A DNA stretch of 64,000 nt, from IMG/VR virus record IMGVR_UViG_3300042975_000098. One strand, given 5' to 3'. Source of the stretch: a virus. How positions within the stretch are numbered: position 1 is the first letter of the stretch; every line of letters starts with the position of its first letter. The position numbers were made by a program, and so were the translations under genes. Of this stretch, positions 4-34,520 are shown one piece after another. The notes below the pieces were generated by a model. That model made no database searches. It saw only the letters and a list, made by a program, of their open reading frames with translations, and was not told where the DNA came from.

Positions 4-2184
4 ATGTACGAGAACGGCGTGCTCCCGTCGCGCCACCCCAGCAAGTCGATCACCGTCGTCGGCGCCGTGCTCGGCGCGTACCACCCGCACGGCGATGCCT
101 CCGTGTACGACGCGATGGCGACGCTGGCGCAGGATTTCACCACGCGCGTCCCGCTCATCGACGGCAAGGGCAACTGGGGCTATCATCCCGGTGACGAGCC
201 GGCTGCGAGCAGGTACACGGAATGCCGGCTCGCGCCGCCCGCGCTGGAGGCGCTGCGCGACATCAAGGACGGCGCCGCGGAGATGGGCAAGAACTTCGAT
301 GGCAAGCACGACGAGCCGAAGTTCCTCCCCGTCAGGTTCCCGAACCTCATCATCAACGGTACGAACGGCATCGCCGTAGGCTACGCCAGCCACATGCCGT
401 CGCACAACCCCGTCGAGGCGATACGCGCATGCCAGTACGTGCTGAACCACGAGGACGCCACCATCGATGACGTCCTACGCATCATGCCCGGCCCCGACTG
501 GTGCACCGGCGGCACCATCATCGGCACCGATGGCATTCGCGACTACTACCGCACCGGGCGCGGTTCCGTGATCGTGAGGGCCAAGTACAAGATCGAGTAC
601 GCGACGGCTGGACGGGCCACCATCGTGTTCTACCAGCTTCCACCGAACGTCAGCGTGGCATCCGTCGTAGAGAAGGTCCGCGGGCTGGTTAAGAACAGCA
701 AGACCGGCATCTGGAACAAGATATCCAGCATCGACAACTACACGGGGCGCGATCAGGGCGGCGACGTGAAACTCGTCCTACGCACGAAGACCGGGGCCAA
801 CGTCCGGGCCGTCATCGCCGCCCTCTTCTCGAAGACGCCGCTGCAGACCACGTTCTCGGTGAACAACACCACGCTGGTGGACAACAAGCCGACCGTGCTG
901 AACGAGCTTGAACTCATCAAGGACTTCCTCCAGTTCCGCCGCGGCTGCGTGCTGCGTAAGGCCGGGCACGCCATGACCATCAAGGTCGCCCGCGTCCACG
1001 CCATCGACGGTCTGCTGTCCGTCATCGTCGACATCGACGCCGCGATCAGCATCATCAGGCACTCGGAGTCCGTGGAGACGGCGCGTACGAAGCTCATGAA
1101 GCGTTTCTCCATCGACGCCAACCAGGCCGATTACGTGCTGTCCATGCAGCTCAGGCGACTCACCAAGCAGGACAGTCTCGCGCTGCGCAACGAGCGCAAG
1201 GGCATCGAATCCGACATCCGCGACCTCAACAAGGTCATCAAGAGCCGGCCCGCGCTGGACAAGTACATCGATGACGAACTGGACGGCGAGGCCGAGATAC
1301 TCAAGGATCCGCGGCATACCGAGATACTCGACAAGGATGCCGCGCAGGCCATGAAGGATGACCGCAAGGCCATCAGGGCCGTCGATCACAACGACCGCAA
1401 GTACGTGTACGAGACCGCCGACGGCCGCATCCTGCTGACGGCGAACGCGCCCGCCGTGAAACCGGAGCCGGGTTCACGCATCACTCCGCACCACGACGTG
1501 ATCCGCACCGAGGATAACGGCGTCATGGTCATGCTCATGGCGAACGGCGACGGCGAGCCCACGCCGGCGTCGTATCTCCGCGAGGACACGGCCATGAAGT
1601 ACTCCGACGTCCACCGCACCGGGACCGGCGTGGCCCTGCTGCCGTTGAAGACCGACATGATCGTCGCCACGCGCGGCGGCAAGATCAGAAGGTACGGCAT
1701 CGAACTGTCGCCTAACGCCGCCGGCCGCCAACTGGTGAACGTCAAGGATGATGACGTCATCGCCGCCGTGGACGTGAGCGGGGTCGCCGCCAAGTCCACC
1801 GTCGTGCTCGTCACGGCGCGCGGCCGCGTGCTGCGGTTCCCGCTCGACTCGCTCAGGGCGGCGGGCGCCGGCTCCGCCCCCATCGTCGGCATGAAGCTGG
1901 CGAAGGGCGACGAGGTGGCGTCGCTGCTGGTCGCCCGTCCCGGCGCCGGGGTCCTGCTGTCGGCCTCCGAGAGGACGCTGAAGGCGACGCCGCTGTCCGA
2001 CATCCCCACGCAGTCCCGCGCTGGCGCCGGCGTGATCTGCCACACGGTGGCGGCCGCCGACCGCATCATCGACGCGGTGATCGACGGAGTGGCCACGAAG
2101 GGCGGCAAGGTCATCGTGCCGCCGCCGGCCACCGTCCGCGGTCGACGGCCCATGCCGGCCATGGGCGTGAAACTCAGCATCTGA
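4..2184 (+). CDS. gyrA: Type IIA topoisomerase subunit A (GyrA/ParC family), probably 5'-truncated by the window
   Basis: HPHGD-A-SVYD QRDR-like segment, catalytic ASRYTE, FPNLIINGTNGIAVG motif, C-terminal pinwheel-like repeats; gyrase versus topo IV not resolved. Confidence 0.9.
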   Translation: MYENGVLPSRHPSKSITVVGAVLGAYHPHGDASVYDAMATLAQDFTTRVPLIDGKGNWGYHPGDEPAASRYTECRLAPPALEALRDIKDGAAEMGKNFDGKHDEPKFLPVRFPNLIINGTNGIAVGYASHMPSHNPVEAIRACQYVLNHEDATIDDVLRIMPGPDWCTGGTIIGTDGIRDYYRTGRGSVIVRAKYKIEYATAGRATIVFYQLPPNVSVASVVEKVRGLVKNSKTGIWNKISSIDNYTGRDQGGDVKLVLRTKTGANVRAVIAALFSKTPLQTTFSVNNTTLVDNKPTVLNELELIKDFLQFRRGCVLRKAGHAMTIKVARVHAIDGLLSVIVDIDAAISIIRHSESVETARTKLMKRFSIDANQADYVLSMQLRRLTKQDSLALRNERKGIESDIRDLNKVIKSRPALDKYIDDELDGEAEILKDPRHTEILDKDAAQAMKDDRKAIRAVDHNDRKYVYETADGRILLTANAPAVKPEPGSRITPHHDVIRTEDNGVMVMLMANGDGEPTPASYLREDTAMKYSDVHRTGTGVALLPLKTDMIVATRGGKIRRYGIELSPNAAGRQLVNVKDDDVIAAVDVSGVAAKSTVVLVTARGRVLRFPLDSLRAAGAGSAPIVGMKLAKGDEVASLLVARPGAGVLLSASERTLKATPLSDIPTQSRAGAGVICHTVAAADRIIDAVIDGVATKGGKVIVPPPATVRGRRPMPAMGVKLSI

Positions 2185-9999: not shown

Positions 10000-10077
10000 A
10001 AGCCGCCGGCGAGCATACGGTTCTCCGCGAGCGCTCGCCAGCGGCCTAGTCCTCATGATGACGTTAAAAGCATGAAC

Positions 10078-10263: not shown

Positions 10264-10336
10264 GGCTGTGAAGCTCTACGGTTTGAGCACCTTCCCGTCG
10301 AGAAGGATGAAGCGGGTTCGACTCCCGGCATAGTCG
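10264..10336 (+). tRNA. tRNA-Asp(GTC), C33
   Basis: GGCTGTG/CATAGTC, CCTTC-ccGTCga-GAAGG. Confidence 0.85.
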
Positions 10337-10339
10337 CTT

Positions 10340-10451
10340 GTATCCGGCATCTATACTTCAGGAATGGCTCCTAGCCATTCCATGATGCCCGGTGAGAAAC
10401 ACATGGGGACGTGAAAACAGCACGAGAACATGCACGCCTCACCGTCTGTTT
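10340..10451 (+). ncRNA. Unclassified pseudoknotted structured RNA, copy 1
   Basis: Four stems covary with copy 2 (12413-12523); loop AAACAG complementary to 3' CTGTTT. Confidence 0.8.
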
Positions 10452-10625: not shown

Positions 10626-11018
10626 ATGGAGAACCTGAAATGGGTCACTGGCAGCACGTACGGTTCAAAATGGAACCATTCCGCGCAGCAGGAAGCAATC
10701 GCGCACGCCACCGCCCGGATCGGCGTGACCACGAAACAGGTAAACCCAAAGAACACCTCGCAATCATGCTCACGATGCGGCGCCAGAATCACGCATGACA
10801 CGAGCAAGAGAACAATCCACTGCCCCGCATGCGACCTCACCATGGACAGGGATTATAACGCAGCAATCAACATCGCACACATCACGAGAACGCACCCCGC
10901 GAGTCATTACGGTAATCGCGGGGGTAAGTGTAGCGGACCGGATGGTCCGCAGCTTATGGGGCTGGGTGCTCCTGTGGGCGCGCTAGGAAGTGGTACTGTT
11001 ATAGGTATTGCAACTTAG
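10626..11018 (+). mobile_element. tnpB: IS200/IS605-family TnpB C-terminal remnant
   Basis: VNPKNTSQSCSRCG...CPACDLTMDRDYNAAINI zinc ribbon plus RuvC-III motif; N-terminal part absent. Confidence 0.85.
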
Positions 11019-11998: not shown

Positions 11999-12068
11999 GC
12001 TTCCATAGCCCAACAGGTAGAGGCGGCAAGGAACCGTTACAGTGCTGGTTCGAGTCCAGCTGGAAGCA
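11999..12068 (+). pseudogene. tRNA-Leu pseudogene with deletion in the anticodon arm
   Basis: Paralog of the 11750 and 14213 tRNAs; arm reduced to GGC-AAGGA-ACCGTT. Confidence 0.7.
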
Positions 12069-12213
12069 CGATGTCCGAATAGCTTGTGTCCGGTCATGCC
12101 AGCGGCCTACAAGCCGCTCCGGTTCATTACCGGTATACGTTCGCCGCCGATGACACATGCCGGCGAACTGGTCACCATTCATCTTGTTGCGTGGCCGCGA
12201 GCATGAAACCGCG

Positions 12214-12256
12214 CGACACGCCGGCGATTGAAAACGTTCAACCATTGTGGTATCTT
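12214..12256 (+). promoter_or_regulatory. Sigma70-type promoter with CGACACGCCGGCG motif
   Basis: TTGAAA-17-TATCTT with extended TG. Confidence 0.6.
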
Positions 12257-12340
12257 GTAATCATAGCGCAACGGGAGGAATGAACATGAGCACGGAAGCC
12301 TGAACAGCTGACCGATGAGCATTGATTGAATGCCACGGCA

Positions 12341-12409
12341 GTTCATGATTCCAATAGGGGAATCGTCGGCGGTAACGCTGACGAGCGGGTTCGAGTCCCG
12401 TCATGAACA
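12341..12409 (+). ncRNA. Anticodon-less tRNA-like RNA, copy 1 (69 nt)
   Basis: GTTCATG/CATGAAC acceptor, D-like hairpin, 8-bp stem with GGTAAC loop, canonical T arm. Confidence 0.75.
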
Positions 12410-12412
12410 CTA

Positions 12413-12523
12413 GTATCCGGTGTCCATACATAGAGTCGGCCCCTGGCCGGCTCACGACACCCGGTCGGAAACGCATGGGAGCATGAAAACAGCATGTGAG
12501 CATGAACGCCCGACCGTCTGTTT
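12413..12523 (+). ncRNA. Unclassified pseudoknotted structured RNA, copy 2
   Basis: Compensatory changes relative to 10340-10451. Confidence 0.8.
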
Positions 12524-12574
12524 CTTTTCCCGCGCGACGCAATGCGCGGGTCGCGTCCCCTAGGGGCGCGGGTG

Positions 12575-12643
12575 GTTCATGGTTCCGATAGGGGAATCGC
12601 CGGCGAAAGCACCGGCGAGCGGGTTCGAGTCCCGTCATGAACA
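12575..12643 (+). ncRNA. Anticodon-less tRNA-like RNA, copy 2 (69 nt)
   Basis: Same fold as 12341-12409; central stem capped by a GAAA tetraloop. Confidence 0.75.
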
Positions 12644-12968
12644 CTAGAGTCTGATTCGCTGTGGTGGCGATGAAAAAGCTCAAGACTCGATACGCAAGCA
12701 TGAATGCATAGAGCAATAGTTTCATGTAGCTGCTGGTGCTGCTTAAACAGGTCGCGGTAAACGAATAACCAGATGATTCACGGGCGGCATCCCGTGATGA
12801 CATGAAAAGCATGAGGCCAACCACCGATTGCTTCCTGTTCCCTACGTTAGTGGGGTCCTAGGATAGTGGCAAGATGGTGAAACCCCGTCGAGGAGCATGA
12901 GAGCGGATGACATGATTAATCATTCGCGTGGCAGGAATCTAAAACCCTGCCACCTATGCTCCGTTTAT

Positions 12969-13832: not shown

Positions 13833-13905
13833 GGCCACGAGGTTCTACGGTTTGAACACCTGCCTGTCGAGCAGGACCAAGCGGGTTCGACTCCCGTCGT
13901 GGTCG
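13833..13905 (+). tRNA. tRNA-Asp(GTC)
   Basis: CCTGC-ctGTCga-GCAGG; paralog of 10264. Confidence 0.88.
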
Positions 13906-15405: not shown

Positions 15406-15479
15406 GGGGGTTTAGCTCAGTCGGTTAGAGCAAACGACTCATAATCGTTCGGTCCAGGGTTCAAGCCCCTGAATCCCCA
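15406..15479 (+). tRNA. tRNA-Met/Ile2(CAT)
   Basis: AACGA-ctCATaa-TCGTT; elongator-type. Confidence 0.88.
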
Positions 15480-15496
15480 CACGTGGTATGTATCTT

Positions 15497-15570
15497 GTCG
15501 ACGTAGCTCAGATGGCCAGAGCGCCGAGTCGAAGCCTCGGAGGTCGTTCGTTCGATGCGAACCGTCGACA
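15497..15570 (+). tRNA. tRNA-Phe(GAA), C33
   Basis: CCGAG-tcGAAgc-CTCGG; GTCGACG/CGTCGAC. Confidence 0.85.
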
Positions 15571-25354: not shown

Positions 25355-25730
25355 ATGAGAACCACGCTTATGATCGTATTCGCCCTGCTGGCGGTCGCCG
25401 AGATGGCCACGGGCGTCATCACCACCGAGAACCACCGGCCGCAGATCAAGCACGTCGCGGATGCGTGCGGGTTCCTGGCGTTCGCCCTCGCGGCCGGCGT
25501 ATGGCCGGCGTCATCGTGGGCGGGCGTCGGCGCGCTGATCCTCGGGTGCGCCGGCATCGTCGCCGGCGTGTTCCTCGCGTCCTCGGACGAGAGGGCCGCC
25601 GCCGCCGACAAGCGCCGGCTGGGAGGAGAGCGAGGCCAACGCGATGCTGACGGGCGCGAACATGGACATGGTGCGCGCCGAGGCCACCCGACTGGTCGAG
25701 CAGGAGTCGGCGCGCGGCCGGAACCGTTGA
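25355..25730 (+). pseudogene. Small membrane protein, copy 1 (frameshift near 25620)
   Basis: Differs from the intact copy 29881-30255 by a 1-nt insertion. Confidence 0.65.
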
Positions 25731-25805
25731 GCAGTATGACATCCACGCCCCCGACATCTGTTAGATGACTGTCGTAACAGAGAACGGGCAGGATCGGAGC
25801 ATGTG

Positions 25806-26495
25806 ATGCCAACGGAAGCGAAGGCCGTATACGGTCGTGAACCTGACGGTACGTACTCACGATGCCGGGCACGGCCCGAGAACATGGGGACCGGGCGCTG
25901 CCATCATCGACCGGGGCCGTCCATGGGCGTGAACGCGGCGGCGCATCTGAGCATGACGGCGAACGAGGTGAACGCGCTTAACGAGCGGGTGATCGCATGG
26001 AACCATGATTCCGGCGCGTCCGCGCTGACGAAGGTCCGGGGCGGTCGCGGGCGATCGGGCGCGAGGTCCGCGGGCGGCGACATGGCCATGCGGATGATCA
26101 TGGCGAAGATGGGGTACCGCGCGGACGGTGACGGCGATAGCCGACCGGTCGGCGACGCGATCGAGCGCACTCGCCGGTTCCGCGGCGCCGATGGCAGGAT
26201 CGCCATCACCACGGTCGAGCGTGACGGCGGCGTCGTCGGCGCCTATCATGACGCGGTGATCGGCGGGACGGTCGTGTCGACGGAGCTTGACGCCCGGCAG
26301 ATGGATGACGCGACGGCGGCGCGAGTGCTGACGAACTCGATCAGGGCCGCGAGAAGGACCGACGCGAAGCGCATGGACGTGAGCGTCGCCCATGACGGCG
26401 ATGACCCGCTGGCGTCCGAGGGCGATATCGTCATCGGCTATGGCGACGCCGCGGGGCGTATCACCGACATCGACGTCATCCGCGCCCGGGACTGA
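25806..26495 (+). CDS. Hypothetical protein with Cys/His leader, copy 1
   Basis: DGTYSRCRARPENMGTGRCHH motif. Confidence 0.7.
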   Translation: MPTEAKAVYGREPDGTYSRCRARPENMGTGRCHHRPGPSMGVNAAAHLSMTANEVNALNERVIAWNHDSGASALTKVRGGRGRSGARSAGGDMAMRMIMAKMGYRADGDGDSRPVGDAIERTRRFRGADGRIAITTVERDGGVVGAYHDAVIGGTVVSTELDARQMDDATAARVLTNSIRAARRTDAKRMDVSVAHDGDDPLASEGDIVIGYGDAAGRITDIDVIRARD

Positions 26496-26531
26496 CGATA
26501 TTGCCCACGCGATCCACGGGAGGGCAATCAC

Positions 26532-26858
26532 ATGAGTACCATCAGCGACACCACGAGAAGCAGGGCCATGACCATCCACGACATGGTGATGGGCATGGGG
26601 CTGCCGGAACCGGACGTCCACGCCACGCGCGTGGGCACCGCGGTCGTAAGCTCCATCGGCGATGATTCCATCGGGTTCATCGAGTTCGATGACGTGGCCG
26701 GCGCCTCGTACCATAAGGACCCGCATGTGCCGGTCATCGACCCGATGAACGCCGACGAGGGATTCAGGAACGCGGACATAGCCGATTTCGACCCGGCGTC
26801 ATTCACGCAGGACGAGATCAGGGCCGTGTTCACCGCCGCCGACACGCCGGCGGAGTAG
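26532..26858 (+). CDS. Hypothetical acidic protein, copy 1
   Basis: GGAGGG RBS; acidic ORF. Confidence 0.7.
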   Translation: MSTISDTTRSRAMTIHDMVMGMGLPEPDVHATRVGTAVVSSIGDDSIGFIEFDDVAGASYHKDPHVPVIDPMNADEGFRNADIADFDPASFTQDEIRAVFTAADTPAE

Positions 26859-26890
26859 ATCGTCCGCCCCTGACGGTATCATTGGTGATC

Positions 26891-27361
26891 ATGAGAATAC
26901 TAGTGACCGGAAGCCGATACCGCCCGGGGGTCGACGTGCGCAACGTGCTCGACCGTTATCGTGGCGTGGCCACCGAGATCGTCGTGGGAAGCTCCACCGG
27001 GGCCGACGCGGCGGCCAGGGCGTGGGCGCGCGCGAACGGGGTGCCGTGCAAGACGTTCCAGAGTGATGACGAGCATAATCATCTCATCGGGTTCAGCAAG
27101 GACGCCATGGACGAGAAGCCCGACCTATGCCTTGCGTTCCCCATCGGGAACTCGCGTGGAACGATCACGGCGATAGAGATGATGCGCAGATCGGGAACGC
27201 CCGTCACCGTCATCCCGGAGTTCGATAACGAGGACTTCGACCGTAAGCATGACGGCGCGGTCATCATGGCGGCGCCGAGCGACGGCGAACTGATGAGGGT
27301 CACGCTCGACAAGACCGTGGAAATCTACGACAAGGGCATCAGGGAGCTGGCGGACCTATGA
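26891..27361 (+). CDS. SLOG-family (DUF2493/YspA-like) protein with antitoxin-like C-terminal tail, copy 1
   Basis: MRILVTGSR, GADAAARAWA, CLAFP.GNSRGT; tail EIYDKGIRELA. Confidence 0.75.
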   Translation: MRILVTGSRYRPGVDVRNVLDRYRGVATEIVVGSSTGADAAARAWARANGVPCKTFQSDDEHNHLIGFSKDAMDEKPDLCLAFPIGNSRGTITAIEMMRRSGTPVTVIPEFDNEDFDRKHDGAVIMAAPSDGELMRVTLDKTVEIYDKGIRELADL

Positions 27362-27783
27362 ACGGTTACGGACTCAAACCAGTGGAGTTCGACGAGGAGC
27401 GGCTCGACGATCTGGTCGACGTGATCATGAGCGCCCATGGCGTCGCGACATCGGTCGGCGGCGGGCTTACCGCGGCCAACGCGACGAACAGGGAGCGCGT
27501 GCGCGCGGCCATCACCGGCATCGTGTGCTATCACGTCGAACGGTTCGCCGACCTGGGGGTGCAGGGCGTCGCGCTCATCGTCCGCATAGCCAAGGCGCAC
27601 GCGTTCGCCGACGGCAACAAGCGCACGGCCATGCTCACCGGCATCACGTTCCTTGAGACGTATGGCCTTCCCGTGGCGTGCTCGCAGCATGACTTCGCGC
27701 TCGCCGGCGTGGCCGCCGCCGTCGGCGACGCCGATGGCGTTCGCTCGCGGCTGTTCGCCGGGGACCACGACGTGGTACAATGA
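27358..27783 (+). CDS. doc: Fic/Doc-family toxin, copy 1
   Basis: HAFADGNKRTA Fic motif; ATGA overlap with the upstream gene. Confidence 0.88.
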   Translation: MNGYGLKPVEFDEERLDDLVDVIMSAHGVATSVGGGLTAANATNRERVRAAITGIVCYHVERFADLGVQGVALIVRIAKAHAFADGNKRTAMLTGITFLETYGLPVACSQHDFALAGVAAAVGDADGVRSRLFAGDHDVVQ

Positions 27784-27834
27784 AACGTATGTGGCACGCG
27801 GGTGGCGCGTGCTTGACCGATTGGAGAGTCTAAG

Positions 27835-28668
27835 ATGGCTGACATGACCGATGCCGAGCAGGCGAGGGAGAACAGGAAATACACGCTGATAGGCGTGATC
27901 GTCACGATCATCGCGGCGATCGCGATCATCGGCGCGGCGATCGCGATCGTCCACGCCAACAGGGCGAAGAACATCAGCGACGAGAGCAAGTCCAGGGCCG
28001 CGTTCTCCAGGATCGCCGACAAGCCGGCTCACGTCGCCGCCGACGGCGCTCTCGTCTACGATCGGCACGGGCTCGAGAAGAGCCCCGTGGACGCCGCGGC
28101 TTCCAACGTCGACCGGGGCGCCAAAGCGGTCGACGTGTACATGGACATGAACTGCCCCGCGTGCGCCATCACCGAGAACACGCTCGCGGACACGTACTCG
28201 AGCCTATTGAAGAGCGGCAGGATACAGCTTCGCATCCACATCGTGTCGTTCCTCGACAACATGAGCAGCGATAAGTACTCGGAGCGGGCCGGGCGCTTCG
28301 TTCTCGCCGCCAGCGACATCGATGGCGACAAGACGCTGAACCTCATCCGGCTCATGTACTCGAACAAGTACTTCCCGGGCGAGGGAACGTCCTACAAGAA
28401 GACCACGTTGAAGGATCTCCGTTCGACCGCGGTCGCCGCCGGGTTCACGAAGGCGCAGGCCGCGCGCATCAGCGAGACCAAGTACGCGGACTGGCTCACC
28501 GCGAAGACGAACTGGTCTCTGGACCGCAAGGACCTGAAGAAGTCCGATGGCACGTTCAGCACGCCTATCGTCCAGGTGAACGGCAAGCACATCGACTACA
28601 ACAACGCCGACCTGCACAAGGCGCTGACCACGCTCGTCGACGCTTCAGCCAAGACGAAGGCGAAGTGA
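27835..28668 (+). CDS. Membrane-anchored DsbA/thioredoxin-fold protein, copy 1
   Basis: N-terminal TM helix, YMDMNCPAC (CxxC), STP cis-Pro loop. Confidence 0.88.
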   Translation: MADMTDAEQARENRKYTLIGVIVTIIAAIAIIGAAIAIVHANRAKNISDESKSRAAFSRIADKPAHVAADGALVYDRHGLEKSPVDAAASNVDRGAKAVDVYMDMNCPACAITENTLADTYSSLLKSGRIQLRIHIVSFLDNMSSDKYSERAGRFVLAASDIDGDKTLNLIRLMYSNKYFPGEGTSYKKTTLKDLRSTAVAAGFTKAQAARISETKYADWLTAKTNWSLDRKDLKKSDGTFSTPIVQVNGKHIDYNNADLHKALTTLVDASAKTKAK

Positions 28669-28703
28669 CGGCGATGGCGTAGACGACCGCCGGCACATGG
28701 CAG

Positions 28704-28751
28704 GGCCGGCGCGATGGGAGAGGTTATCCCCCTCATCGCGCCGGCCTTTCT
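28704..28751 (+). terminator. Hairpin terminator after the DsbA-like gene (repeated in copy 2)
   Basis: GGCCGGCGCGATG/CATCGCGCCGGCC followed by TTTCT. Confidence 0.7.
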
Positions 28752-28791
28752 GTTAGATGGTTTACCGTAACGAAATGGTAAGGAGACCGTC

Positions 28792-29733
28792 ATGGCATAT
28801 CACATCTCACCGAAGACGCACAAGCCGGAACGATGCGTCGCTAAGATCGGCTGCCGGTACGGGGCCGGGGTCAAGCACTTCGACACGCTACGAGAAGCCG
28901 AGGATTACCAAGAGACGCAATACGAGCAGGAGTACGCTAAGAAAGCGCAGTCGCCGTTGGTGGCGCGCAGGATACGCCGCGAGCACGAGCAGCTGAACCA
29001 CGTCGACAATCCCATCGTCGACGCCGAGCTTCAAGGCATCATCGATTCCAGCGCACGGTCGCGGACGATGGTCATGGCATTGTCGTCCAACGGCAATTAT
29101 GCGGAGTACCCGGTGCGCAAGCTCCGGTACTCGAATCGCGCGGACGTGGCCGCCGCGGTCAAATCGTATGACGATACGATGTCCTATGTCGACGGCATCA
29201 AGGACCCGGAGCAGAAACTCGCCGTCCTGTACTCGAACCGCGATCGCATCGACGCCGATTACGAGGCGCTGCGCAAGAGCATCGACCTGTCCGGCGTGGA
29301 CGCCGACACCATTTACGAGGGTCGCAACGGCGGCTCGTTCGTCATCGGCTCATACGCCACGGTGGATGTCGATGCCATGGCCGCGGACGGGGTGGACGTG
29401 GACGAGTATCGTCATGCCGTCGATCAGATCGATGAGACGGCGTTGAAGAAGGCGGTCGTCGAACTTGGCGACGAGGGCAAGTCGATGCTCGACCGGAACA
29501 CCATATTCTTCGCGCGGAAGACATCGTACAACGAGTTGAACTCGGACCCGCGCGGGAACCTGTACCAGCCGACCACCGGCGGCATCGCCGCCATGAGCGA
29601 GGCGCATAAGCGCGCGCTGCTGTGCGAGACCGGGCTGATGAAGAAGAACATCACCGAGCGCATCGACCGCTCCGCACTCGAGGATGAGGGTGATGGCGTT
29701 GTGCGACGGCGGCGGCATCACGTCGAACCGTGA
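28792..29733 (+). pseudogene. C-terminally truncated copy of 33321-34520, cut by the duplication junction
   Basis: Identical until ERIDRS, then reads into duplicated sequence. Confidence 0.8.
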
Positions 29734-29880: not shown

Positions 29881-30255
29881 ATGAGAACCACGCTTATGAT
29901 CGTATTCGCCCTGCTGGCGGTCGCCGAGATGGCCACGGGCGTCATCACCACCGAGAACCACCGGCCGCAGATCAAGCACGTCGCGGATGCGTGCGGGTTC
30001 CTGGCGTTCGCCCTCGCGGCCGGCGTATGGCCGGCGTCATCGTGGGCGGGCGTCGGCGCGCTGATACTCGGGTGCGCCGGCATCGTCGCCGGCGTGTTCC
30101 TCGCGTCCTCGGACGAGAGGGCAGCTGCCGCCGACAAGCGCCGGCGGGAGGAGAGCGAGGCCAACGCGATGCTGACGGGCGCGAACATGGACATGGTGCG
30201 CGCCGAGGCCACCCGACTGGTCGAGCAGGAGTCGGCGCGCGGCCGGAACCGTTGA
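29881..30255 (+). CDS. Small membrane protein, intact copy 2
   Basis: Three hydrophobic segments. Confidence 0.7.
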   Translation: MRTTLMIVFALLAVAEMATGVITTENHRPQIKHVADACGFLAFALAAGVWPASSWAGVGALILGCAGIVAGVFLASSDERAAAADKRRREESEANAMLTGANMDMVRAEATRLVEQESARGRNR

Positions 30256-30330
30256 GCAGTATGACATCCACGCACCCGACATCTGTTAGATGACTGTCGT
30301 AACAGAGAACGGGCAGGATCGGAGCATGTG

Positions 30331-31020
30331 ATGCCAACGGAAGCGAAGGCCGTATACGGTCGTGAACCTGACGGTACGTACTCACGATGCCGGGCACGGC
30401 CCGAGAACATGGGGACCGGGCGCTGCCATCATCGACCGGGGCCGTCCATGGGCGTGAACGCGGCGGCGCATCTGAGCATGACGGCGAACGAGGTGAACGC
30501 GCTTAACGAGCGGGTGATCGCATGGAACCATGATTCCGGCGCGTCCGCGCTGACGAAGGCTCGGGGCGGTCGCGGGCGATCGGGCGCGAGGTCCGCGGGC
30601 GGCGACATGGCCATGCGGATGATCATGGCGAAGATGGGGTACCGCGCGGACGGTGACGGCGATAGCCGACCGGTCGGCGACGCGATCGAGCGCACTCGCC
30701 GGTTCCGCGGCGCCGATGGCAGGATCGCCATCACCACGGTCGAGCGTGACGGCGGCGTCGTCGGCGCCTATCATGACGCGGTGATCGGCGGGACGGTCGT
30801 GTCGACGGAGCTTGACGCCCGGCAGATGGATGACGCGACGGCGGCGCGAGTGCTGACGAACTCGATCAGGGCCGCGAGAAGGACCGACGCGAAGCGCATG
30901 GACGTGAGCGTCGCCCATGACGGCGATGACCCGCTGGCGTCCGAGGGCGATATCGTCATCGGCTATGGCGACGCCGCGGGGCGTATCACCGACATCGACG
31001 TCATCCGCGCCCGGGACTGA
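30331..31020 (+). CDS. Cys/His leader protein, copy 2
   Basis: Duplicate of 25806-26495. Confidence 0.7.
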   Translation: MPTEAKAVYGREPDGTYSRCRARPENMGTGRCHHRPGPSMGVNAAAHLSMTANEVNALNERVIAWNHDSGASALTKARGGRGRSGARSAGGDMAMRMIMAKMGYRADGDGDSRPVGDAIERTRRFRGADGRIAITTVERDGGVVGAYHDAVIGGTVVSTELDARQMDDATAARVLTNSIRAARRTDAKRMDVSVAHDGDDPLASEGDIVIGYGDAAGRITDIDVIRARD

Positions 31021-31056
31021 CGATATTGCCCACGCGATCCACGGGAGGGCAATCAT

Positions 31057-31383
31057 ATGAGTACCATCAGCGACACCACGAGAAGCAGGGCCATGACCAT
31101 CCACGACATGGTGATGGGCATGGGGCTGCCGGAACCGGACGTCCACGCCACGCGCGTGGGCACCGCGGTCGTAAGCTCCATCGGCGATGATTCCATCGGG
31201 TTCATCGAGTTCGATGACGTGGCCGGCGCCTCGTACCATAAGGACCCGCATGTGCCGGTCATCGACCCGATGAACGCCGACGAGGGATTCAGGAACGCGG
31301 ACATAGCCGATTTCGACCCGGCGTCATTCACGCAGGACGAGATCAGGGCCGTGTTCACCGCCGCCGACACGCCGGCGGAGTAG
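31057..31383 (+). CDS. Hypothetical acidic protein, copy 2
   Basis: Duplicate of 26532-26858. Confidence 0.7.
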   Translation: MSTISDTTRSRAMTIHDMVMGMGLPEPDVHATRVGTAVVSSIGDDSIGFIEFDDVAGASYHKDPHVPVIDPMNADEGFRNADIADFDPASFTQDEIRAVFTAADTPAE

Positions 31384-31416
31384 ATCGTTCCGCCCCTGAC
31401 GGTATCATTGGTGATC

Positions 31417-31887
31417 ATGAGAATACTAGTGACCGGAAGCCGATACCGCCCGGGGGTCGACGTGCGCAACGTGCTCGACCGTTATCGTGGCGTGGCCACC
31501 GAGATCGTCGTGGGAAGCTCCACCGGGGCCGACGCGGCGGCCAGGGCGTGGGCGCGCGCGAACGGGGTGCCGTGCAAGACGTTCCAGAGTGATGACGAGC
31601 ATAATCATCTCATCGGGTTCAGCAAGGACGCCATGGACGAGAAGCCCGACCTATGCCTTGCGTTCCCCATCGGGAACTCGCGTGGAACGATCACGGCGAT
31701 AGAGATGATGCGCAGATCGGGAACGCCCGTCACCGTCATCCCGGAGTTCGATAACGAGGACTTCGACCGTAAGCATGACGGCGCGGTCATCATGGCGGCG
31801 CCGAGCGACGGCGAACTGATGAGGGTCACGCTCGACAAGACCGTGGAAATCTACGACAAGGGCATCAGGGAGCTGGCGGACCTATGA
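31417..31887 (+). CDS. SLOG-antitoxin-like fusion, copy 2
   Basis: Duplicate of 26891-27361. Confidence 0.75.
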   Translation: MRILVTGSRYRPGVDVRNVLDRYRGVATEIVVGSSTGADAAARAWARANGVPCKTFQSDDEHNHLIGFSKDAMDEKPDLCLAFPIGNSRGTITAIEMMRRSGTPVTVIPEFDNEDFDRKHDGAVIMAAPSDGELMRVTLDKTVEIYDKGIRELADL

Positions 31888-32309
31888 ACGGTTACGGACT
31901 CAAACCAGTGGAGTTCGACGAGGAGCGGCTCGACGATCTGGTCGACGTGATCATGAGCGCCCATGGCGTCGCGACATCGGTCGGCGGCGGGCTTACCGCG
32001 GCCAACGCGACGAACAGGGAGCGCGTGCGCGCGGCCATCACCGGCATCGTGTGCTATCACGTCGAACGGTTCGCCGACCTGGGGGTGCAGGGCGTCGCGC
32101 TCATCGTCCGCATAGCCAAGGCGCACGCGTTCGCCGACGGCAACAAGCGCACGGCCATGCTCACCGGCATCACGTTCCTTGAGACGTATGGCCTTCCCGT
32201 GGCGTGCTCGCAGCATGACTTCGCGCTCGCCGGCGTGGCCGCCGCCGTCGGCGACGCCGATGGCGTTCGCTCGCGGCTGTTCGCCGGGGACCACGACGTG
32301 GTACAATGA
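31884..32309 (+). CDS. doc: Fic/Doc-family toxin, copy 2
   Basis: Duplicate of 27358-27783. Confidence 0.88.
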   Translation: MNGYGLKPVEFDEERLDDLVDVIMSAHGVATSVGGGLTAANATNRERVRAAITGIVCYHVERFADLGVQGVALIVRIAKAHAFADGNKRTAMLTGITFLETYGLPVACSQHDFALAGVAAAVGDADGVRSRLFAGDHDVVQ

Positions 32310-32360
32310 AACGTATGTGGCACGCGGGTGGCGCGTGCTTGACCGATTGGAGAGTTTAAG

Positions 32361-33195
32361 ATGGCTGACATGACCGATGCCGAGCAGGCGAGGGAGAACA
32401 GGAAATACACGCTGATAGGCGTGATCGTCACGATCATCGCGGCGATCGCGATCATCGGCGCGGCGATAGCGATCGTCCACGCCAACAGGGCGAAGAACAT
32501 CAGCGACGAGAGCAAGTCCAAGGCCGCGTTCTCCAGGATCGCCGACAAGCCGGCTCACGTCGCCGTCGACGGCGCTCTCGTCTACGATCGCCGAGGGTTC
32601 GAGAAGGACCCCGTGGACCACCGCGGCTTCCAACGTCGACCGGGGCGCCAAAGCGGTCGACGTGTACATGGACATGAACTGCCCCGCGTGCGCCATCACC
32701 GAGAACACGCTCGCGGACACGTACTCGAGCCTATTGAAGAGCGGCAGGATCCAGCTTCGCATCCACATCGTGTCGTTCCTCGACAACATGAGCAGCGATA
32801 AGTACTCGGAGCGGGCCGGGCGCTTCGTTCTCGCCGCCAGCGACATCGATGGCGACAAGACGCTGAACCTCATCCGGCTCATGTACTCGAACAAGTACTT
32901 CCCGGGCGAGGGAACGTCCTACAAGAAGACCACGTTGAAGGATCTCCGTTCGACCGCGGTCGCCGCCGGGTTCACGAAGGCGCAGGCCGCGCGCATCAGC
33001 GAGACCAAGTACGCGGACTGGCTGACGGCGAAGACGAACTGGTCTCTGGACCGCAAGGACCTGAAGAAGTCCGATGGCACGTTCAGCACGCCTATCGTCC
33101 AGGTGAACGGCAAGCACATCGACTACAACAACGCCGACCTTCCCAAGGCGCTGACCACGCTCGTCGACGCTTCAGCCAAGACGAAGGCGAAGTGA
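32361..33195 (+). pseudogene. DsbA-like gene copy 2, frameshifted near 32620
   Basis: +1 nt relative to copy 1 within a cluster of mismatches. Confidence 0.75.
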
Positions 33196-33320
33196 CGGCG
33201 ATGGCGTAGACGACCGCCGGCACATGGCAGGGGCCGGCGCGATGGGAGAGGTTATCCCCCCTCATCGCGCCGGCCTTTCTGTTAGATGGTTTACCGTAAC
33301 GAAATGGTAAGGAGACCGTC

Positions 33321-34520
33321 ATGGCATATCACATCTCACCGAAGACGCACAAGCCGGAACGATGCGTCGCTAAGATCGGCTGCCGGTACGGGGCCGGGGT
33401 CAAGCACTTCGACACGCTACGAGAAGCCGAGGATTACCAAGAGACGCAATACGAGCAGGAGTACGCTAAGAAAGCGCAGTCGCCGTTGGTGGCGCGCAGG
33501 ATACGCCGCGAGCACGAGCAGCTGAACCACGTCGACAATCCCATCGTCGACGCCGAGCTTCAAGGCATCATCGATTCCAGCGCACGGTCGCGGACGATGG
33601 TCATGGCATTGTCGTCCAACGGCAATTATGCGGAGTACCCGGTGCGCAAGCTCCGGTACTCGAATCGCGCGGACGTGGCCGCCGCGGTCAAATCGTATGA
33701 CGATACGATGTCCTATGTCGACGGCATCAAGGACCCGGAGCAGAAACTCGCCGTCCTGTACTCGAACCGCGATCGCATCGACGCCGATTACGAGGCGCTG
33801 CGCAAGAGCATCGACCTGTCCGGCGTGGACGCCGACACCATTTACGAGGGTCGCAACGGCGGCTCGTTCGTCATCGGCTCGTACGCCACGGTGGATGTCG
33901 ACGCCATGGCCGCGGACGGGGTGGACGTGGACGAGTATCGTCATGCCGTCGATCAGATCGATGAGACGGCGTTGAAGAAGGCGGTCGTCGAACTTGGCGA
34001 CGAGGGCAAGTCGATGCTCGACCGGAACACCATATTCTTCGCGCGGAAGAAATCGTACAACGAGTTGAACTCGGACCCGCGCGGGAACCTGTACCAGCCG
34101 ACCACCGGCGGCATCGCCGCCATGAGCGAGGCGCATAAGCGCGCGCTGCTGTGCGAGACCGGGCTGATGAAGAAGAACATCACCGAGCGCATCGACCGCT
34201 CCGAGCGCGATCTGCGCAAGGCCGGCGTCGCGAAGCACAAGGACGAGGGCTGGTACTTCCGCAAGGGGAACGGGAAGATCGGGTTCACGGCGCGGACGAA
34301 CACGACGGTGAACCACGCCGCCGCGGCCAAGCACTTCGGGAATCTCGACTTCGCGAAGCGTAGCGTCGGCGCCGTCACCGTTGATGCGGTGAAGGAGCAG
34401 TACGGGTACCGTTACCTGAAGCCGGCGAAGCGGCTGTACTTCCGCGACATCAGCAGCGGCGAGGCCGAGCGCATACCGGACAAGCCGAAGACCGCGTACA
34501 GCGAGCGTCCCAAGGCGTGA
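33321..34520 (+). CDS. Hypothetical protein with Cys/His leader (full-length copy)
   Basis: MAYHISPKTHKPERCVAKIGCRYGAGVKHF leader. Confidence 0.8.
   Translation: MAYHISPKTHKPERCVAKIGCRYGAGVKHFDTLREAEDYQETQYEQEYAKKAQSPLVARRIRREHEQLNHVDNPIVDAELQGIIDSSARSRTMVMALSSNGNYAEYPVRKLRYSNRADVAAAVKSYDDTMSYVDGIKDPEQKLAVLYSNRDRIDADYEALRKSIDLSGVDADTIYEGRNGGSFVIGSYATVDVDAMAADGVDVDEYRHAVDQIDETALKKAVVELGDEGKSMLDRNTIFFARKKSYNELNSDPRGNLYQPTTGGIAAMSEAHKRALLCETGLMKKNITERIDRSERDLRKAGVAKHKDEGWYFRKGNGKIGFTARTNTTVNHAAAAKHFGNLDFAKRSVGAVTVDAVKEQYGYRYLKPAKRLYFRDISSGEAERIPDKPKTAYSERPKA

Follow-up and report, generated by a model that had tools for sequence, protein, structure and literature searches.

The segment at positions 12341-12643 of a viral metagenome record (IMGVR_UViG_3300042975_000098) raises the question of what two tRNA-shaped units with no place for an anticodon might do within an array of tRNA genes. 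Here, the window means the whole stretch of DNA that was analysed, 64,000 nucleotides long.

The window is part of a large high-GC element with 45 tRNA calls by ARAGORN and a tmRNA, and encodes gyrA, a sigma factor, a ligase, dnaX, a DUF3566 protein and a TadE-like gene. It also contains a PF03090 replicase, whose best plasmid matches come from Kocuria and Micrococcus. A 99.7% identical copy lies within a 346-kb JGI contig (L041). The succession of replicase, tmRNA and tRNA array recalls the bifidobacterial megaplasmid pMP7017 (PMC10832533). We infer that the element of about 346 kb is probably giant, actinobacterial and plasmid-like. The sequencing runs that contain it come from bioreactor sludge, and variants occur in fermentation and food-production metagenomes. 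The RNA runs X15-X20 gave small word shares and bear on neither expression nor habitat; X15, the one true RNA run among them that was aligned, has no cover of the mimics, which carries no weight, and X16 is probably DNA. Elsewhere in the window, a 4.5-kb tandem duplication (about 25355-29733 and 29881-34520) covers several genes, the SLOG and Fic/Doc pair among them, and may be an assembly artefact, and a remnant of a TnpB/Cas12f-like gene (PF07282) is located within the tRNA array at 10626-11018.

The cassette that contains both units comprises the following features:

12228..12256, plus strand: sigma70-type promoter-like site, TTGAAA-17-TATCTT with an extended -10 TG, heading the cassette
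12263..12340, plus strand: 5' leader of mimic 1, with no notable structure (fold z -0.8) and a possible 7-codon ORF after GGGAGG
12341..12409, plus strand: mimic 1, with acceptor 12341-47/12402-08, A8, D arm 12349-62, central 9-bp arm with GUAA cap 12363-84, T arm 12385-12401 and discriminator A at 12409
12410..12412, plus strand: CTA in the CCA position, with the next RNA beginning directly after it
12413..12523, plus strand: structured trailer RNA ('pseudoknot RNA'), 73% identical to a paralogue at 10340-10451
12529..12571, plus strand: pair of GC-rich hairpins separating the trailer RNA from mimic 2 (z -3.7)
12575..12643, plus strand: mimic 2, with acceptor 12575-81/12636-42, G8, D arm 12583-96, central arm 12597-12618, T arm 12619-35 and discriminator at 12643 (A; G in some strains)
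12647..12962, plus strand: downstream ORF-free structured region, beginning 3 nt after mimic 2 (z -2.65)

Transcription would start near 12263. The promoter-like site is weak when taken alone, with four such sites found against 3.2 expected, and it is 98-99% conserved in two relatives (L248 and L250). The downstream region is 82-86% kept in L249 and L250, has no Rfam match and is a candidate for an ncRNA, or a set of RNAs, of its own. An antisense ORF of 183-187 aa over the cassette (12261-12812/12824, minus strand) was rejected as spurious, with no Pfam domain and a reading frame broken in L248 and L249.

Up to and including the discriminator A, each unit measures 69 nt, with CTAG coming next, as seen by direct reading and by alignment. 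They have a common 7-bp acceptor (GTTCATG/CATGAAC) and an identical 17-nt T arm with a 5-bp stem and a UUCGAGU loop. The D arm consists of a 4-bp stem (TTCC/GGAA) and a 6-nt loop, RATAGG, ending in GG. There is a single linker base (A8 in copy 1, G8 in copy 2), no base 9 and no variable loop. The outline of two 69-nt units with these shared parts, given by the sequence-only reading, was thus confirmed. The CTAG to which it had drawn attention is indeed present after both units, yet C74 occurs in all 37 array tRNAs surveyed, two of which encode CCA, and the CTA/CTAG trailer is the normal pattern of the array, not a special one. The bases at -1 of the mimics (A and G) are rare in array tRNAs (3 of 37), a point against the processing reading proposed below.

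The central arm is 22 nt long in each mimic. The earlier description of it as paired and devoid of a 7-nt anticodon loop holds, but the GGTAAC loop assigned to copy 1 turned out to be a ninth pair, G31-C36, closing a GUAA (GNRA) tetraloop. In mimic 2, the stem has 7 bp and a short extension; the GAAA tetraloop proposed earlier can form there with a C-G closure and a 2-nt bulge, an AAAG cap with a G-C closure and a C.A mismatch being the alternative. Neither mimic has a 7-nt loop or U33. The two copies differ at 7 of the 22 central positions and at 2 of the 47 elsewhere (Fisher p=0.0035). Folded alone, they are cloverleafs of -34.2 kcal/mol (copy 1; z -5.43) and -33.2 kcal/mol (copy 2; z -4.06), and none of 200 shuffles folds as well; a loose four-arm descriptor gives one match per 150 shuffles of the 11.7-kb array. 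The mimics were called neither by ARAGORN nor by Rfam at the gathering score. The sub-threshold Rfam matches were to tRNA-Sec, at 21.9 bits (cut-off 47), and to mascRNA-menRNA, at 19.5 bits (cut-off 42.5) for copy 2, copy 1 not being among the matches listed for the latter model.

The spurious antisense ORF served as bait to collect variants from public contigs, and the covariation set comprises six intact, close haplotypes, of which several probably stem from a single sampling campaign. In L251 and run X12, the U6-A63 pair of copy 2 is replaced by C6-G63 and the discriminator is G. L250 shows two central-stem changes, both to G.U wobbles. Copy 1 of L248 contains a third central allele, with U.G and A-U pairs, a CGAG cap and a terminal U.C mismatch, together with A45-U61 and one extra G in the D loop. 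Copy 2 of run X13 has a central allele resembling that of L248 and a change of G45.U61 to U45-A61, and C59 to A is among the variants listed for this run.

Over the six haplotypes, 97.3% of the pair cells are standard, and three pairs have changed on both sides. Pairing as high as observed was reached by 12 of 500 shuffles, and slid controls gave 33-57%. Eight of the ten derived pair states are still paired, with a simulated P for kept pairing of 0.0003 to 0.09, depending on the transition bias assumed. The acceptor strands change together, two of their three substitutions falling in one pair (chance about 0.03). In the central stem, pairing varies between G-C, G.U and A-U, and pair 45-61, at the base of the T stem, varies between G.U, A-U and U-A. 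Covariation, which had been suggested as a check, therefore shows the pairing kept and the cap variable, with moderate support from six close haplotypes, and the mimics look selected for shape. The reference copies alone could be drawn with an 8/4 acceptor/T division; this was rejected, as pair 45-61 is U-A in X13, where G8 cannot pair with A61, and A45-U61 in L248. The 7/5 reading is fixed because this pair exists as G.U, A-U and U-A. An origin of the units as att sites or direct repeats was also discarded, since each unit has a full 5' half that covaries with its 3' half.

In each of the six intact haplotypes, the central stem has 8-9 bp and is capped by 4 nt. Its three alleles, whose caps are all different, move between the two mimic positions. 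A hidden anticodon is excluded because the cap differs in all three alleles, and none of the six haplotypes contains an anticodon loop. The claim that these are non-decoding tRNA mimics is thereby upheld: the three caps differ while the stem beneath them has largely preserved its pairing, and on this anatomy the mimics cannot decode.

Concerning their origin, the relevant relatives are found in the same array:

10264..10451, plus strand: paralogous module with a true tRNA-Asp(GTC), CTT and the paralogue of the trailer RNA
13833..13905, plus strand: tRNA-Asp(GTC) no. 2, the closest relative of the top half (25/33 positions; 27/33 to the L251 variant)

In the acceptor-plus-T half, the other array tRNA-Asp is tied for second closest, and the purine found at position 8 of the mimics is restricted, among 37 array tRNAs, to the two tRNA-Asp. 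The mimics and the array tRNA-Asp(GTC) also have in common G1-C72, C4-G69, A5-U68, G7-C66, G49.U65, the T arm, C74 and the same trailer RNA at equal spacing, the CTT after the tRNA-Asp at 10336 matching the CTA after mimic 1. They differ in that the mimics have no anticodon loop, variable loop or base 9, have a 6-nt D loop and score below the Rfam cut-off. The T arm and acceptor of mimic 1, plus 3 nt and the trailer, align to the tRNA-Asp module at 10264 with one 1-nt gap, and hence mimic 1 stands where the paralogue has a real tRNA. This paralogue of the flanked RNA, following a true tRNA-Asp at the same spacing, and the likely tRNA-Asp origin had both escaped the sequence-only reading. The mimics probably derive from tRNA-Asp, and most likely a tRNA-Asp-plus-trailer module was duplicated and the tRNA then rebuilt. 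The D loop has eight bases, CCAATAGG, in common with tRNA-Leu(TAG), which makes a mosaic origin possible.

The cassette is accessory and dispensable. It is missing from two 92%-identical relatives (L034 and L046), and in L249, an 85% relative, it has shrunk to the downstream region and a mimic remnant. In L248, the downstream region is deleted and the 3' end of copy 2 was lost through T-arm recombination with tRNA-Lys, leaving a mimic 2/tRNA-Lys 3'-end chimera (1027-1096, minus strand) and deleting about 400 bp; this chimera shows how the tRNA array shuffles. At all four junctions seen (tRNA-Asp, both mimics and the L249 remnant), N73-C-Y-W is followed directly by the G that opens the next RNA.

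Outside the strains of this element, no homologues were found: blastn against phages and plasmids gave chance matches or ordinary tRNAs, and so did pattern and protein scans of IMG/VR, GTDB and JGI metagenomes, 12 GTDB matches to the trailer pattern being left uninspected. Exact patterns would miss diverged relatives, and absence is not proven by these scans. Two covariance models, R1 and R2, scored intact copies at 87-99 bits and anything else at 38.5 bits or less, the top outsiders being a mycobacterial plasmid tRNA-Glu and an 8/4 tRNA-His in L038 (35.9 bits), which share mainly the T arm. Neither Rfam 15 nor the literature searched yielded a described bacterial RNA with the four-arm design of mascRNA, and literature searches for the T4 species 1/2 RNAs returned nothing.

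Several other irregular elements were observed in the array and its relatives. Segment 11413-11471 of the window, 59 nt long and identical in L248, is a further tRNA look-alike that tRNA finders overlook; it combines an acceptor-like stem with a T arm and a single additional hairpin. The 'tRNA-Pro(AGG)' called by ARAGORN at 11999-12069 resembles a shortened tRNA-Leu(AAG) with A33; it is kept in L046 and L248, and L249 has an intact Leu(AAG) at the matching site. L249 also carries a different, 50-nt element at the mimic 2 site (about 1902-1955, minus strand), right after tRNA-Ile; its ends can pair (GTGTTCAG/CTGAACAC) and it has an encoded CCA end, the predicted fold not clearly supporting this pairing. 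A repeated box, TGATGAC-N3-AAAAGCATGA, occurs in the window at 10056, 11135 and 12795, in L046 at 12596 and in L246 at 5335; in two places it immediately precedes a tRNA gene (Arg, Lys), in one it falls within the region that follows mimic 2, and it is possibly a protein-binding or processing motif. In L038, an (8/4)-type tRNA-His(GTG) whose anticodon stem has 6 bp and whose variable arm is long, as in PMC5389517, is present at 15450-15536, with a degenerate copy in L249. An unrelated 69-nt tRNA-like phage RNA (L171 10336-10404; also L213 and L217), with G3:U70 and no anticodon arm, resembles a stand-alone tmRNA tRNA domain.

Starting from the observed anatomy, the inability to decode, the pairing kept among strains, the tRNA-Asp likeness and the conserved junction, we propose that the mimics would be tRNA-like processing signals that release the flanking trailer and downstream RNAs, a reading that we regard as having about even chances. 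The cassette promoter would produce one precursor holding both mimics. Each would keep the 7/5 acceptor-T stack and the elbow formed by the D-loop GG and the T loop while having lost the single-stranded linkers, and the long capped helix that replaces the anticodon arm would stack on the D stem and hold the L shape. Host tRNA-maturation enzymes would then treat the mimics as tRNAs, with RNase P making the 5' end and a 3' endonuclease and/or exonucleases the 3' end, followed by CCA addition. Cleavage would excise the structured RNA after each unit without adding a decoding tRNA, and neighbour release would be the job under selection.

The top half of the mimics is intact and near-invariant (7/5, D-loop GG, T-loop UUCGA and C74), and elbow and top half are the features by which RNase P, RNase Z and CCA enzymes recognise their substrates (PMC4810234). 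The retention of the 12-bp top stack and elbow together with the absence of the decoding parts favours a processing-enzyme substrate. Among the functions offered by the sequence-only reading, that of RNase P/CCA-enzyme substrate is in fact the best supported by anatomy and context, although the substrate role itself stays a proposal. In crystal structures, mascRNA and menRNA adopt an L shape without linker residues; their anticodon-equivalent stem is longer, RNase P and RNase Z recognise and cut them, and they are not aminoacylated (PMC11693755). A similar L shape would explain why the central helix is kept paired. In plant mitochondria, t-elements have been proposed as tRNA-like cis processing signals (PMC1920247). 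The parts of the cassette reassort independently among strains (L248 and L249), as would be expected of separate RNAs. In an energy model of the full precursor, strand-swapped or leader-paired folds are preferred by 1.5-7 kcal/mol; we give this prediction little weight because about one third of the true tRNAs of the array fail the same in-context test.

A normal tRNA already occupies the place of the mimic in the paralogous module, so that punctuation alone leaves the sealing of the anticodon unexplained. This is where a role as a free RNA would have its strength, since it would explain a sealed version replacing a working tRNA, and the movement of central-arm alleles between positions may point to the same role. 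The released units could be stable tRNA-shaped decoys or ligands, directed against tRNA-targeting toxins or defence nucleases or made for a dedicated protein, with a tRNA body and CCA end but no cleavable anticodon, and with the excision of neighbours as a by-product; we consider this a real but minority possibility. It would fit a lower arm of about full tRNA length (4+9 bp plus cap) that stays paired while three alleles vary in sequence, the duplication of the unit within an accessory cassette that has its own promoter, and an array that carries other non-decoding tRNA look-alikes. Counter-defence genes often sit in such accessory cassettes. Against it, the fixed spacing to the downstream RNAs suits a cis role better, PTH2-like, Ro60, RtcB and synthetase-like partners are absent by Pfam among the 40 window ORFs scanned, from 64 of about 346 kb, and no paper on tRNA-mimic decoys was found among the titles and abstract openings seen. 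No protein gene adjoins the mimics. In its most specific form, which we would put forward as rather a speculation, a tRNA-Asp gene would have been turned into a sealed-anticodon, mascRNA-like, nuclease-proof decoy or ligand that works on its own after release, against the host's tRNA-targeting defence, its central arm diversifying under that pressure. The decoy and processing-signal readings are not mutually exclusive.

That the mimics are uncut internal domains of one large structured ncRNA (about 12263-12962) is unlikely in our judgement, even though a single promoter heads an ORF-free, helix-rich stretch of 700 nt and the energy model gives cross-copy acceptor pairing a probability of 0.6-0.7 in the full transcript. 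In the strand-swapped version, the 5' strand of copy 1 would pair with the 3' strand of copy 2; the compensatory C6-G63 occurs in copy 2 only, where cross-pairing would give a C.A mismatch, and this within-copy compensation led us to disfavour the swapped fold. Moreover, the trailer also occurs after tRNA-Asp, and the downstream region exists without intact mimics in L249 and is deleted in L248. Non-ribosomal aminoacyl carriers, charged by an anticodon-blind synthetase, had been named among the earlier options and now appear very unlikely. LeuRS could act through A73, the usual discriminator, and the elbow, the acceptor end being intact and the D loop sharing CCAATAGG with tRNA-Leu(TAG), or SerRS could read the central arm as a variable arm, which is where the Rfam tRNA-Sec model places it. 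But the discriminator is A or G depending on the strain, there is neither G3:U70 nor G-1/C73, no aminoacyl-transferase gene was seen nearby, and mascRNA, of the same design, is not aminoacylated (PMC11693755). We finally disfavour, as the least probable reading of all, functionless decaying tRNA duplicates or recombination scars: the cassette is dispensable, is missing in close relatives and has lost the 3' end of copy 2 in L248, but decay would not equip a tRNA with a 9-bp helix and remove precisely its linkers, and the substitutions preserve pairs, both acceptor strands changing together.

Returning to the processing signals that we favour, their closest structural counterparts are mascRNA and menRNA (RF01684; PMC11693755), which share with the mimics a 7-bp acceptor, a 17-nt T arm, a small D arm with GG and the absence of a variable loop, as well as a longer anticodon-equivalent stem with a compact loop, almost no linkers, a longer ncRNA precursor and a CCA that is not encoded. 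The mimics have this linker-less cloverleaf design at the secondary-structure level while missing the RF01684 gathering score; they measure 69 nt, with one linker base and a central arm of 22 nt, against 57-58 nt and 15-17 nt in mascRNA/menRNA, and belong to a bacterial mobile element instead of the 3' end of vertebrate MALAT1 or MEN-beta (NEAT1). The likeness is apparently convergent, by way of tRNA-Asp. With plant mitochondrial t-elements and tRNA punctuation (PMC1920247), the mimics share tRNA-like structures proposed as RNase P/Z cis signals that define the ends of neighbours, but the RNAs next to the mimics are small, structured and part of a plasmid tRNA array, and the tidy four-arm fold of the mimics is kept among strains. 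Allo-tRNAs and (8/4) tRNA-Ser/His (PMC5389517) are similarly irregular tRNAs from the tRNA clusters of mobile elements, and some are non-translating; allo-tRNAs have an anticodon arm and a long variable arm, whereas the mimics have one lower arm between the D and T arms and a 7/5 division.

Compared with a canonical decoding tRNA (RF00005), the mimics contain the 7-bp acceptor, the 5-bp T stem and the TTCRA loop, but lack the 5-bp anticodon stem, the 7-nt loop, U33, U8, base 9 and the variable loop. YrlA Y RNAs (RF02553) and the tRNA-like domain of tmRNA are bacterial tRNA mimics in which the anticodon is missing and the D/T elbow retained. In YrlA the arms are circularly permuted and the acceptor is closed, while the mimics follow the order acceptor-D-central-T-acceptor with open acceptor ends and have no RF02553 match at E<=10. 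The tmRNA domain has G3:U70 and no D stem, whereas the mimics have U3-A70 and a 4-bp D stem. By this comparison, the mimics fall outside the tRNA, mascRNA-menRNA, allo-tRNA, YrlA and tmRNA families and may work like mascRNA.

The narrow distribution, in one element lineage, limits the weight of the finding. At this size, the unit lends itself to direct RNase P/Z, CCA-addition and toxin-decoy assays, and if the proposal is true, the ancestral arrangement, a real tRNA with the same trailer RNA, persists 2 kb away as a built-in control. In giant mobile elements, tRNA arrays harbour RNA genes that tRNA finders do not see, and in this array, if the proposal holds, bacteria would have reached the four-arm design of mascRNA independently, from a tRNA-Asp gene.
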